DNA from: an uncultured Clostridia bacterium
GTDB lineage: Bacteria; Bacillota; Clostridia; TANB77; CAG-508
DNA length: 64,000 nt
Reading direction: 5' to 3'
NCBI GenBank assembly: GCA_944390965.1
Contig: CALXRW010000001.1
Location: forward strand, 19,273 to 83,272
Shown here: positions 6,638 through 35,495 of the stretch, one piece after another
Layout: each line of letters opens with the position of its first letter
Numbering within the stretch: the stretch's first letter is position 1
Notes under the pieces: generated by a model
Databases searched by the model: none
Told to the model about the DNA's origin: nothing
Seen by the model: the letters and a program-made list of their open reading frames with translations, nothing else
Position numbers and translations under genes: made by a program

Positions 6638-6750
6638 ATCCGGCTAATGACCTTATATTTTGAAATAAAAGCTCGAACAGCCTTCCGCTGCCGAATTACT
6701 CCTTGAACCTTGAGAGTTTTATTGAAAAATATAAGGTCATCAGCCGGATA
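6638..6750. repeat. Palindrome-embedded conserved 57-nt core element, copy A. It is a candidate structured RNA or miniature insertion.
   Basis: A 24-bp inverted repeat (atccggctaatgaccttatatttt / aaaatataaggtcatcagccggat) encloses the core aaagctcgaacagccttccgctgccgaattactccttgaaccttgagagtttt. The same core recurs at 22853-22909 and 54267-54323. Confidence 0.6.
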
Positions 6751-6835
6751 GTTTAAAAAGAAAAATCTTATTTTTTTCTTCTATTTACTTTATATTTTTT
6801 TCATATATTGGTATACTATCTACGAGGTGAATTTT

Positions 6836-9457
6836 ATGACACAAAATCCAATAAAAGAAGATATCGAGATTGAAAAAATTTATGGTGAAAATTGTGTTTT
6901 AGATACAGATACTTTTTTACATAAAAATCATTTTTCAGCTGAAGGACTATCTAATAAACAAGCTCAAGAAAAACTTAAAGCCTATGGACCTAATTTAATT
7001 AAAAGAGCAAAACCGCCAAAATGGTATCACTATTTTTTTAAAAGTTTGTTTAGCCCCTTTAATAGTATTTTAATGGGAATTATTGCTGTATTAATCTATA
7101 CTGATATCATTCTGCCTCCAGAACCAAGTTATGCTAATATTACTGTAATTGCTATTTTAATTATTGTAAGTTCTTTGCTTGAATTTTTTGAAGAATATCG
7201 TTCCAATAAAGCAGCAGAAAAATTAAAAGAATTGGTTGCTACTACATCTACAGTTAAAAGAGGAAAAGATTTTATTAAAGTTCCTATGGAGCAAATTACT
7301 GTGGGAGATTTGGTATCTCTATCTGCTGGTGATTTAATTCCTGCTGATTTGAGAATTATAGAATCTAAAGATTTATATGTTAGTCAGTCCTCCCTTACTG
7401 GTGAATCTGATTCTGTAAAAAAAATAGCTAATTCAGAAATTAAGAATATAGAAGATATTGATTCTATTTCAGATTTGGATACACTTTGTTTTACTGGTAG
7501 CAATGTTGTAAGTGGATATGCCAAGGGAATCGTAATTAAAGTGGGAGACGATACCTATTTAGGGAAAATTGCTCATACTTTATCACAAGGAAAACCTGAT
7601 ACAGCTTTTCAAAAAGGTATTAAAAGTGTAAGTAAATTACTAATTCGTTTTATGCTAATTATTATTCCCCTTACTTTTTTAGTAAATGCATGGAAACACA
7701 ATACTTTAACAGCTTTTACATTTGCCGTAGCTATTGCAATTGGAATTACGCCTTTGCTACTTCCTGTTATTCTTTCTTCTAGTTTGGCAAAAGGTGCTGT
7801 TCGTATGTCTAAAAAGAAAACCATTGTTAAAAAATTAGATTCAGTTCAAAGTTTTGGTAGTATGAATATTTTATGTACAGATAAAACAGGTACTTTAACA
7901 GAAGATAAAATTGTACTAGAAAAATACTTAGATATTGATGGAAATGAAGATATTCATGTCTTAGGAGATGCTTATTTAAATGCTTATTTTCAATCTGGTT
8001 TAAAAGCTAATATTGATACAGCAGTTATTCAAAGAGCTGAAAAAGAAAATATTACTTCTCTAAAAGAAGAATATGAAAAACTAGATGAAATTCCTTTTGA
8101 TTTTTCAAGAAGAAGACTTTCTGTTGTTGTAAAGCACGATAACGATACCTTTTTAATTACCAAAGGAGCTGTAGAAGAAATTTTAAATATCTGTTCTTTT
8201 GCGGAAAAAAATAATGTTGTAGATTCTATTACAAATCATATGAAAGAAAATATTTTAAAAATTACCAAAAAATTAAATGAGGAAGGCTTACGAGTTGTTG
8301 CAGTATGTAAAAAGAAAAATATTGATTTGTCTCATCCTTTAAGTGTAAAAGATGAGAGCCAAATGACATTAACAGGCTTTATAGGTTTTTTAGACCCTCC
8401 TAAAGAAAGTGCAAAAGAAGCAATTGAAAAGCTAAATCACTATGGTATTCGTGTTATGGTTTTAACAGGAGACAATGCTGAAGTCACAAAATCTGTATGT
8501 GATAAGGTAGGTATTTATTCTTCTAAAATTGTATTAGGAAACCAAATTGATAGATTGTCTGATACTGCAGTTTATCGTTTAACAAAAAAAGTAAATATTT
8601 TTGCTAAACTTTCTCCTATACAAAAAGCTAGAATCGTAAGAATTCTAAAACAGTCTGAAAACACCGTAGGCTACATGGGTGATGGTATTAATGATAGTCC
8701 ATCTTTAGTAAATTCTGATGTTGGTATTTCAGTAGATTCTGCTGTAGACATTGCCAAAGAAACTGCTGATATTATATTATTAGAAAAAGATTTAAAAGTT
8801 CTTTTAGATGGTGTTGTAGAAGGTAGAAAGACATTTGCTAATTTATTGAAATATATTAAAATGGCTGTTAGCTTTAATTTTGGTGAAGTATTATCTGTTC
8901 TGATTGCTAGTATTTTTCTACCATTTTTGCCAATTACACCAATCCAATTATTAGTACAAAGTTTATTATATGATCTTGGTCAATTGACTTTGCCATTTGA
9001 TAATGTTGACCCTGAATATTTAGCAAAACCTACTAGATGGAATATGAAAAGTATTAAACATTTCATGTTTGCTATGGGACCAGTTAGTTCTATTTTCGAT
9101 TTAATTGTATTTGCTTCTTTATGGTTTGGATTTGGTTTGAGAGAAAATGATGTCGCTTTATTCCAAACAATATGGTTCTCTTATGGTATTGTTTCTAATC
9201 TAGTGGGGCTCCATATTATTAGAACTGCCAAAATTCCATTTTTCCAAAGCAATGCATCAAAAATGGTATACGCTTCCTCAGCTTTACTTAGCATTATAGC
9301 TATTATTGTTCCTTACACTTGGCTTGGAAAAACAATTGGTTTAGTTCCTTTAAATTTAACCTATATTGGATTTATTTTACTAATTCCTATTATTTACTGT
9401 TTTGTTGCTTTACTTGCAAAGAAAGATTATATTAAAGTTTATAAAGAATGGATATAG
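6836..9457 (+). CDS. mgtA: Magnesium-translocating P-type ATPase
   Basis: CTDKTGTLT phosphorylation motif, MGDGINDSP, TGES and about 10 TM segments. The length is 874 aa. ATG at 6836 is preceded by GAGGTGA. Confidence 0.9.
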   Translation: MTQNPIKEDIEIEKIYGENCVLDTDTFLHKNHFSAEGLSNKQAQEKLKAYGPNLIKRAKPPKWYHYFFKSLFSPFNSILMGIIAVLIYTDIILPPEPSYANITVIAILIIVSSLLEFFEEYRSNKAAEKLKELVATTSTVKRGKDFIKVPMEQITVGDLVSLSAGDLIPADLRIIESKDLYVSQSSLTGESDSVKKIANSEIKNIEDIDSISDLDTLCFTGSNVVSGYAKGIVIKVGDDTYLGKIAHTLSQGKPDTAFQKGIKSVSKLLIRFMLIIIPLTFLVNAWKHNTLTAFTFAVAIAIGITPLLLPVILSSSLAKGAVRMSKKKTIVKKLDSVQSFGSMNILCTDKTGTLTEDKIVLEKYLDIDGNEDIHVLGDAYLNAYFQSGLKANIDTAVIQRAEKENITSLKEEYEKLDEIPFDFSRRRLSVVVKHDNDTFLITKGAVEEILNICSFAEKNNVVDSITNHMKENILKITKKLNEEGLRVVAVCKKKNIDLSHPLSVKDESQMTLTGFIGFLDPPKESAKEAIEKLNHYGIRVMVLTGDNAEVTKSVCDKVGIYSSKIVLGNQIDRLSDTAVYRLTKKVNIFAKLSPIQKARIVRILKQSENTVGYMGDGINDSPSLVNSDVGISVDSAVDIAKETADIILLEKDLKVLLDGVVEGRKTFANLLKYIKMAVSFNFGEVLSVLIASIFLPFLPITPIQLLVQSLLYDLGQLTLPFDNVDPEYLAKPTRWNMKSIKHFMFAMGPVSSIFDLIVFASLWFGFGLRENDVALFQTIWFSYGIVSNLVGLHIIRTAKIPFFQSNASKMVYASSALLSIIAIIVPYTWLGKTIGLVPLNLTYIGFILLIPIIYCFVALLAKKDYIKVYKEWI

Positions 9458-9503
9458 GAAACTTAACCTTGTTGCTCCAGAAAAATTTAGCAATTTTTCT
9501 TTT

Positions 9504-9530
9504 CAAAATATAAGGTCATTAGACGGATAT
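9504..9530. repeat. Solo copy of the copy-A right arm
   Basis: caaaatataaggtcattagacggata matches aaaatataaggtcatcagccggata from 6726-6750. No core is attached. Confidence 0.4.
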
Positions 9531-9582
9531 TGCGAAACTTTGAAGTTTCAAATAGTTTCCTATGTAACAACATAAAAGCTGG

Positions 9583-21074: not shown

Positions 21075-21337
21075 TTTTTTCTGGGTTCGTCAAGACGAAC
21101 CCCTACATTTTAAGCAATTCCTTTGTAGCACGGGCGATTAAAATCGCCCCTACGTTTTAGCAAATTCTTCGAAGAACGGGTCGCCGTGGGTGGCGACACC
21201 CTACATATGTTTCTAATGAATAGTGAATAATAAATAATTAATAATTTTTTGTAGGGGTCGGTCTTGACCGACCCAAAATGTTGAACAATACCACAAATTA
21301 TTCATTCTTCACTATTCATTTTTCATTATTCATTAAT
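21075..21337. repeat. Composite REP-like / miniature-element-like cluster
   Basis: Hairpins gggttcgtcaagacgaaccc-ctaca, gggcgattaaaatcgccc-ctac and gtcgccgtgggtggcgac-accctaca. An inverted gtagg-ggtcggtcttgaccgaccc sits between the inverted repeat taatgaatagtgaataat ... attattcattcttcactattcatt. The first 100 bp are near-identical to 51086-51180. Confidence 0.7.
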
Positions 21338-22782: not shown

Positions 22783-22972
22783 AATTCTACAGCAATGACA
22801 TTAAGTTAATTGAATGATTTTCTCTGTTTCAATTTCAATCATATATACCTATATTTTAAAGCAAAAGCTCGAACAGCCTGCTGCTTACGGATTACTCCTT
22901 GAACCTTGAGAGTTTTGCGACTAAAATATAGGTATATATGGTTGATTTTCTGTTTTCCTAACTTAATGTCAT
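22783..22972. repeat. Conserved 57-nt core element copy B inside a nested palindrome
   Basis: Inner inverted repeat caatcatatatacctatatttta / taaaatataggtatatatggttg, and outer inverted repeat acagcaatgacattaagtt / aacttaatgtcattgctg. The direct repeats gattttctctgtttc and gattttctgttttcc lie just outside the inner arms. The core differs from copy A at about 6 positions. Confidence 0.6.
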
Positions 22973-23004
22973 TGCTGATTCCTCTGTCTGTTAGCAGTAA
23001 TATT

Positions 23005-24846: not shown

Positions 24847-24885
24847 TTCTTTGAAGAACGGGCGATTAAAATCGCCCCTACATTT
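24847..24885. repeat. REP-like unit
   Basis: ctttgaagaacgggcgattaaaatcgcccctacatttttt. Confidence 0.7.
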
Positions 24886-35454: not shown

Positions 35455-35495
35455 TTCTTCGAAGAACAGGCGATTAAAATCTCCCCTACATTTTT
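35455..35495. repeat. REP-like unit (stem degraded)
   Basis: cttcgaagaacaggcgattaaaatctcccctacatttttt. Confidence 0.5.

Follow-up and report, generated by a model that had tools for sequence, protein, structure and literature searches.

A 64-kb stretch of DNA from an uncultured Clostridia bacterium (about 29% GC, with sporulation genes), hereafter the window, contains three copies, A, B and C, of a repeat that is present in many copies, restricted to a narrow lineage, built from modules and non-coding. Its arms keep their complementarity, its copies lie at the 3' ends of genes, and it has undergone inversion, deletion and nesting. The explanation that we favour, at a probability of roughly 55%, is that of a lineage-specific family of interspersed, nested palindromes, akin to REPIN, ERIC and MITE elements, which multiplied as DNA in an ancestor of the lineage. 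The family is a previously undescribed one; the kind of repeat to which it belongs (REP/REPIN, ERIC, MITE) is already known.

Each copy is centred on a core of about 53 nt found three times on the plus strand (Table 1). Two conserved blocks of this core, AAAGCTYGAACAGCC and CCTTGARCCTTGAGAGTTTT, both occur three times in the window, always on the plus strand, versus 0.23 and 0.00 occurrences expected from shuffles. Counted from the sequences, the cores are about 91% identical, in line with an earlier note on this DNA that had recognised three copies sharing one core at about 90% identity. A 6-bp helix closes each core (ATAAAA/TTTTAT in A and C, GCAAAA/TTTTGC in B). The arms had been described as perfect inverted repeats, which holds for copy C (27 bp) but not for the arm pair of copy A (24 bp, one A·C mismatch) or the inner arm pair of copy B (23 bp, one T·G mismatch). 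The second, outer palindrome that the earlier note had reported in copy B was found as well (22790-22810 with 22958-22977), and the cctctgtctg tail beside it is a remnant of the outermost part of a 33-bp terminal repeat of the type 2 subfamily described below. The folding energy of the copies lies 7 to 10 SD below that of shuffles (z-scores of -7 to -10) on either strand, as expected of any long palindrome.

Table 1. Parts of copies A, B and C and of the decayed copy downstream of mgtA, in coordinates of the 64-kb window
Feature	Position	Strand	Remarks
Copy A, left arm of main hairpin (atccggctaatgaccttatatttt)	6638..6661	+	pairs with 6726-6749, one A·C mismatch
Copy A, asymmetric core	6668..6720	+	loop closed by helix P2 (ATAAAA/TTTTAT) at 6664-6669 and 6717-6722
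Copy A, right arm	6726..6749	+	partner of 6638..6661
Copy A, type 1 flank module LF in inverted position	6750..6767	-	GATTTTTCTTTTTAAACT, 2 mismatches to LF
Decayed type 1 copy	9492..9563	+	LF 9492-9509, one arm 9505-9528, RF2 9530-9563; left arm and core deleted
Copy B (type 2), outer left inverted repeat	22790..22810	+	kept in about 12 type 2 copies
Copy B, left T-rich direct repeat (gattttctctgttt)	22816..22829	+	conserved internal part of type 2
Copy B, inner left arm	22835..22857	+	one T·G mismatch with right arm
Copy B, core	22864..22916	+	both conserved blocks
Copy B, inner right arm	22923..22945	+	partner of 22835..22857
Copy B, right T-rich direct repeat (gattttctgtttt)	22944..22956	+	conserved internal part of type 2
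Copy B, outer right inverted repeat and cctctgtctg tail	22958..22990	+	outer palindrome partner of 22790-22810 is 22958-22977
Copy C (type 1), left flank module LF	54210..54231	+	
Copy C, left arm	54238..54264	+	27 bp, perfect
Copy C, core	54271..54323	+	
Copy C, right arm	54329..54355	+	
Copy C, right flank module RF1 (tattttattttcactt)	54364..54379	+	

Database searches, which the earlier note had proposed across Clostridia genomes, revealed about 40 further copies, which come exclusively from close relatives (one ENA assembly and two Clostridia MAGs), bringing the collection to about 45 copies of non-coding elements of 110-215 bp. When one genome per species (185,579 species) was scanned for an exact pattern, a single MAG, "uncultured Clostridia bacterium BRZ_GA__bin106", accounted for 26 matches and another Clostridia MAG for 1; the remaining 5 loci match the 20-mer alone and look like chance. 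With a stricter pattern, 12 loci were retrieved from a metagenome collection, every one of them in a single ENA assembly that contains both a strain with 99% identity to the window and a population with about 95% identity to BRZ_GA__bin106. The latter is syntenic with the window at 88-93% identity, and the two thus represent sister species. No member of the family was detected in phage records, plasmids or viral contigs, where 17-mer matches in viral contigs are due to chance, and 27 kb of sequence from two relatives with about 70% identity in mgtA contain none either. This distribution defines the family as one of a narrow lineage. To judge from their sample names, the metagenomes with these repeats appear to come from the human gut.

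Metagenome contigs often end inside an element (L068, L070, L071, L049 and L052), and two low-coverage contigs join the left and right arms of different copies (L046, 1353-1462; L051, 1392-1498). For L046, synteny to the MAG locus extends on one side only, and the mismatched arms of L051 suggest the same situation. The repeats may thus act as assembly breakpoints or chimera points, or be real sites of recombination. The mismatched-arm copies of L046 and L051, in contigs of 2x coverage, are probably chimeric joins formed at repeats and were left out of consideration.

Based on an alignment that included their flanks, the elements can be divided into subfamilies defined by their outer stems, each common to many loci. 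Type 1, represented by copies A and C, consists of the hairpin and of the conserved flank modules LF (gatttttcttttgaaaataaaa), RF1 (cattttattttcactt) and RF2 (ttgcgaaactttgaagtttcatat..tttcctata). Type 2, represented by copy B, reaches about 215 nt and is bounded by an outer inverted repeat of about 33 bp (CAGACAGAGGGACGGCAATGTCATTAAGTTAAG and its complement), with a T-rich tract past the hairpin on one strand only. Further arm types occur at loci L025, L016 and L030. The inner arms measure 21-27 bp in all copies, the flank modules always occur together with a core, and it is the centre, not the ends, that is most conserved across subfamilies. The view that the outer stems are specific to each copy has therefore to be abandoned: the arms of A and C are homologous, with compensated differences, and all arm types recur elsewhere in relatives. 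The direct repeats just outside the inner arms of copy B, which had been likened to a target-site duplication, do exist; the duplication itself is ruled out because gattttctctgttt and gattttctgtttt are conserved in about 12 type 2 copies at unrelated loci and are thus part of the element. Modules also come and go. The MAG orthologue of locus C (L003, about 6740-6770) carries a 27-nt module, aataggaaatgcaattccctataaagg, that is related to the outer end of full type 1 copies and is missing from the window at 54386-54400, a difference that is one of indel turnover at the level of modules.

Copies are intergenic and lie beside housekeeping genes, including rplT, metK, rpsI, purA, ftsH, phoH and genes for aminoacyl-tRNA synthetases. 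Convergent gaps hold 13 of 27 copies, versus a baseline of 12% (p about 5e-6), and divergent gaps only two of the 27. In tandem gaps, 10 of 27 copies are antisense to the genes and 2 of 27 are in the sense direction, the latter being copy A and L009, both with a flipped core. In 23 of 27 cases the gene on the 3' side of the core is directed at the element, and GC skew on the core strand is negative in 31 of 37 loci; the window falls entirely on one replichore, and its three cores are all located on the C-rich strand. A rule based on the replication strand was rejected, since gene strand is a confounder of the 31 to 6 bias, which moreover has exceptions. The orientation bias could reflect a strand-specific function and would then speak against the explanation that we favour. 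Copy B fills the whole 232-nt gap between a pseudouridine synthase gene and ftsH, which are convergent, and any termination of both transcripts must consequently fall within it.

Changes in the palindrome follow its pairing. Across the 32 distinct copies of the covariation analysis (alignment A2), 95.8% of the cells of the proposed structure are paired, versus 85% in shuffles and 37-48% in slid controls, and double-sided changes affect 14 of the 23 arm pairs and 2 of the 6 pairs of the closing helix (P2). Compensated changes also distinguish orthologous copies: an A-T pair of copy C is replaced by C-G in L003, and copy B differs from L014 by two compensated pairs in the outer repeat. By hand count, the alignment of B with L014 contains 5 changes in 88 paired nt, of which 4 are compensated, and 24 changes in 124 unpaired nt. 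The arms remain complementary while their sequence drifts.

Such covariation, strong in both the long stem and the closing helix, is what a structured RNA would display, and this was one of two explanations put forward in the earlier note. The covariation of the long stem has been borne out, but nothing marks RNA over a DNA palindrome: arm mismatches, partly counted by hand from the sequences, comprise 6 G·T and 6 A·C, and this symmetry singles out no RNA strand and places the constraint on the palindrome, not demonstrably on RNA. An RNA reading would make the repeats a multi-copy family of small RNAs or cis-acting 3'-UTR elements, in which the functional part is the loop GGAUUACYCCUUGARCCUUGAGAG, or its complement with two CAAGG motifs, and the stem either presents this loop or acts as a terminator or RNase III structure. 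We consider this unlikely, even though it would account for the strong orientation bias relative to the adjacent gene, the folding z-scores and the one-sided changes of a putative helix, P3, which are G·U-compatible on the plus strand. None of the three small helices that can be drawn within the core has a compensatory change in the 32 copies. In its 3' half the core hardly varies between at least four arm types, as might be expected of a functional loop, but this invariance, including that of the 20-nt block, was partly forced by the search patterns, and strain variants of locus C read CCTTGAAACTTGAGAG in place of the block. Copies that share a locus with another match all keep the exact block, and GGATTAC, which lay outside the first search pattern, is constant in every copy except A.

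Database evidence also argues against a known RNA. As the earlier note had advised, the window was compared with Rfam, with 0 matches at the gathering score over its whole length; with relaxed settings, copies B and C matched nothing beyond generic microRNA hairpins, at noise level and far below threshold. The elements contain no convincing promoter, promoter-like matches being no commoner than in shuffles, and perfect helices of at least 25 bp are atypical for bacterial small RNAs. Between species, the elements diverge as fast as other intergenic DNA (86.3% and 94.9% identity, versus 86.8% and 96.3%). Two ORFs on the minus strand do read through copies B and C, as had been remarked, and the core is nonetheless non-coding, as had also been supposed: stops and frameshifts break the minus-strand frame in at least 14 of the 32 copies, which rules out a coding role.

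Several rearrangements could be traced. Hairpin and core are inverted relative to the LF/RF flanks in copy A, as revealed by the inverted LF beside it, and at loci L009 and L019. Between the orthologous loci L006 and L053 (89% identity), an entire type 2 element of about 235 nt is inverted, with breakpoints inside its terminal repeats. At this locus the type 2 element sits within the core of another, diverged copy, whose GGATTAC motif it splits between GGATT and AC; this one nested copy is the sole trace of insertion.

Paralogues with both core orientations, an ortholog pair differing by inversion, and a T-rich tract that follows the type 2 hairpin on one strand only are features that might be expected of invertible switches, in which a site-specific recombinase would turn the core around between the arms and thereby change the orientation of a promoter or terminator (phase variation). 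Strain contigs read for copies A, B and C numbered 22, 13 and 4, respectively, and all of those inspected (3, 5 and 4) have the orientation of the window; with no flip within species, the inversions are rare events and not phase variation. Moreover, no recombinase gene was found nearby (37 window ORFs scanned, locus neighbours read), the core has no convincing promoter, and an invertible segment of about 65 bp is very short for recombinase synapsis. We therefore regard such switches as highly improbable.

The association of one core with at least four unrelated-looking arm sets, and its occurrence in either orientation relative to the type 1 flanks, can also be read as the work of a smaller mobile element. 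The inner unit of about 80 nt (TTATATTTT..core..AAAATATAA), whose inner ends form an imperfect inverted repeat of about 22 bp (read from copies A-C), would then have entered the loops of pre-existing repeat hairpins in either orientation. This is a modified form of the second explanation of the earlier note, a miniature element inserting into pre-existing terminator hairpins, and in our judgement a very doubtful one. No hairpin or arm pair devoid of a core was found in 384 kb of DNA from the lineage, apart from a solo arm attributable to deletion, and the constant company of core and flank modules, as well as the conservation of B's direct repeats across loci, also speaks against it. Inversion between the arms explains the flips more simply, and one pair of orthologues differs by the inversion of a whole element. 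Terminator hairpins as targets are not supported, given arms that are common to many loci and the lack of empty hairpins in the 384 kb: the outer hairpins are parts of the subfamilies, and separate terminators lie outside the elements. Outside copy C, the terminator scan detected an intrinsic terminator of the upstream gene; outside copy A, a similar hairpin followed by a T-run was read by eye and was not picked up by the scan.

The solo arm in question lies after mgtA, at 9505-9528, where the earlier note had located it. It is more than a lone arm: to judge from the LF and RF2 modules on either side, it is a deletion derivative of a type 1 copy that lacks the left arm and the core, both plausibly lost by deletion between two GAAAATA repeats. 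This decayed copy is present in all strains seen. The mgtA gene (6827-9457) is thus bracketed by copy A and the decayed copy, whose LF modules face the gene in inverted orientation. Outside the lineage, its nearest homologues reach no more than 72% identity and lie in different neighbourhoods. The bracketing is possibly a matter of chance, and possibly the trace of a rearrangement or acquisition.

The comparison of orthologous intergenic regions, also recommended in the earlier note, found the element in both species at all 8 sites. With no presence/absence difference in these 8 cross-species comparisons or in the inspected strain contigs, mobility is something that we infer rather than observe. 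No target-site duplication was seen at the ends of 10 type 2 copies, and a hairpin or single-strand route, REPIN-like, or a recombinational one therefore fits better than DDE cut-and-paste. Pfam scans of the 37 window ORFs identified no transposase or recombinase among what are only housekeeping and sporulation genes, and clustering the ORFs of all 8-kb loci revealed no recurrent gene beside the elements. Likewise, neither the 64-kb window nor about 300 kb of loci revealed an autonomous insertion sequence that shares the termini of the elements. There is no RAYT (Y1 HUH) gene among the scanned window ORFs, and the neighbouring ORFs of the other loci, by eye, read like housekeeping genes.

The window contains a second, unrelated repeat family, in which GTAG is followed by a short GC-rich hairpin, e.g., tGTAGGGGCGATTTTAATCGCCC, often adjoining aatttcttcgaagaac. 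Its members are found on the minus strand (24860-24885, 35468-35492, 43735-43757, 43775-43797 and 43826-43852) and on the plus strand (43948-43975), and GTAGGGG occurs at 13 sites in the window versus 1.6 expected, with 10 of the 13 on the minus strand. A GTAG-hairpin is characteristic of REP elements that RAYT transposases mobilise and is unusual in a low-GC Clostridia bacterium. Members of this family also lie beside some copies in MAG loci (left flank of L030). Kinship between the core and this REP-like family was dismissed, their similarity being limited to a 15-nt AT-rich stretch. Two paralogous ORFs of 433 and 468 aa with no Pfam match (19792-21093 and 49693-51099) share an upstream repeat with GTAGGGG sites (20999-21134 and 51005-51140), and related fragments were encountered at L003, L013, L030 and L051. 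Elsewhere in the window, two tandem paralogous genes encode a Zeta-toxin domain (12078-12962 and 13256-14158), and spoIVA, a spore-germination permease gene and mfd/TRCF are each split into two overlapping ORFs (10502-11981, 17090-18206 and 44788-48220), as a result of either assembly frameshift errors or real pseudogene formation.

Under the favoured explanation, that of a nested-palindrome family amplified as DNA, the unit comprises the asymmetric core of about 53 nt, the 6-bp closing helix and near-perfect arms of 21-27 bp, wrapped by outer modules specific to each subfamily. It would have multiplied in an ancestor of a narrow Clostridia lineage, moved by a putative enzyme acting in trans, and the copies would now be inherited vertically at fixed intergenic sites, where their nested inverted repeats permit occasional inversion of the core or the whole element, deletions and nesting. 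The arms would be maintained by selection for the hairpin or by correction within the palindrome. Any present-day effect would presumably be that of a large 3' stem-loop that ends or stabilises transcripts, a role suggested by the location of copies at gene 3' ends and by copy B filling a convergent gap.

A more specific proposal, which we put forward as speculative and rather improbable, is that the core is a recognition module, made of a small hairpin followed by GGATTAC and tandem CCTTGAR, which interchangeable arms present as a loop, in single-stranded DNA or in RNA, to a dedicated strand-specific enzyme or binding protein. The element would then be a loop-centred, REPIN-like replicator or regulator in Firmicutes, with an orientation that inversion between the arms can reset. 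The orientation bias (31 of 37 for GC skew, 23 of 27 for the neighbouring 3' end), the nested insertion exactly between GGATT and AC, and the presence of one core in several arm families point to this proposal without proving it. Were the core such a recognition site, REPIN-type biology would extend to Firmicutes; as it stands, the family is ordinary selfish or structural repeat DNA. In either case, an undescribed repeat family and a co-resident REP-like family are documented in an uncultured low-GC Clostridia bacterium. Since the repeats break metagenome contigs and make chimeric joins, knowing them aids assembly and binning. They also offer a clean natural example of palindrome arms that stay complementary across species divergence despite drift, and display the inversion of a nested palindrome between orthologous loci.

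Among known systems, integron attC sites have conserved R''/R' boxes at the base of the stem and a variable centre. The opposite is found here, with a conserved centre and a variable stem base, which rules out identity with attC sites. Chloroplast small hairpin-loop inversions and bacterial invertons both feature a segment bounded by inverted repeats that occurs in both orientations. The repeats share this feature among related sequences, except that their flips are rare on an evolutionary timescale and that no recombinase or population heterogeneity was detected; of the two features that define invertons, coexisting orientations were not seen in the contigs inspected at loci A, B and C, and a dedicated recombinase was not found among the 37 window ORFs scanned.

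Bacterial MITEs include RUP, Correia/NEMIS and BOX. Like MITEs, the elements are short (110-215 bp, for a usual limit of less than about 500 bp), multi-copy and without coding capacity, have terminal inverted repeats (about 33 bp for the outer repeat of type 2, 21-27 bp for the arms), lie near gene ends and can be nested. They differ from MITEs by the lack of visible target-site duplications (10 type 2 copies) and of observed insertion polymorphism (8 orthologous sites and inspected strain contigs), and by subfamilies that share their interior instead of their termini; no related insertion sequence was seen in the 64-kb window or about 300 kb of loci. The ERIC/IRU elements of enterobacteria, reportedly described by Hulton et al. 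in 1991, are extragenic imperfect palindromes some 125 nt long whose central region is highly conserved. The repeats resemble them as extragenic imperfect palindromes of similar length with a conserved centre, transcribable within neighbouring mRNAs. In contrast to ERIC, they have nested outer repeats and occur in another taxon, and the two are not known to share any sequence similarity.

Parallels also exist with REP-derived elements. REP/BIME mosaics are known from enterobacteria and pseudomonads. Like REP, BIME and REPIN elements, the repeats are short, non-coding and present in many intergenic copies, and they share with REPINs and BIMEs vertical inheritance, the lack of target duplications and a mosaic, modular build. 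They differ from REP elements in lacking the GTAG signature with its GC-rich palindrome, their arms being AT-rich, and from REPIN-RAYT systems in their low-GC Clostridia host; no RAYT gene was seen among the scanned window ORFs. A further contrast with both REPINs and MITEs is that the repeats show no mobility today. REPINs are REP doublets that form hairpins, with compensatory changes across the hairpin, and their conserved parts are the two ends (REP and an invariant 16-mer), the spacer being variable (PMC3116915). The present elements likewise form a long hairpin of two inverted halves with compensatory changes, in 14 of 23 arm pairs and between orthologues; unlike in REPINs, it is the centre that is common to all subfamilies, and the arms that differ.
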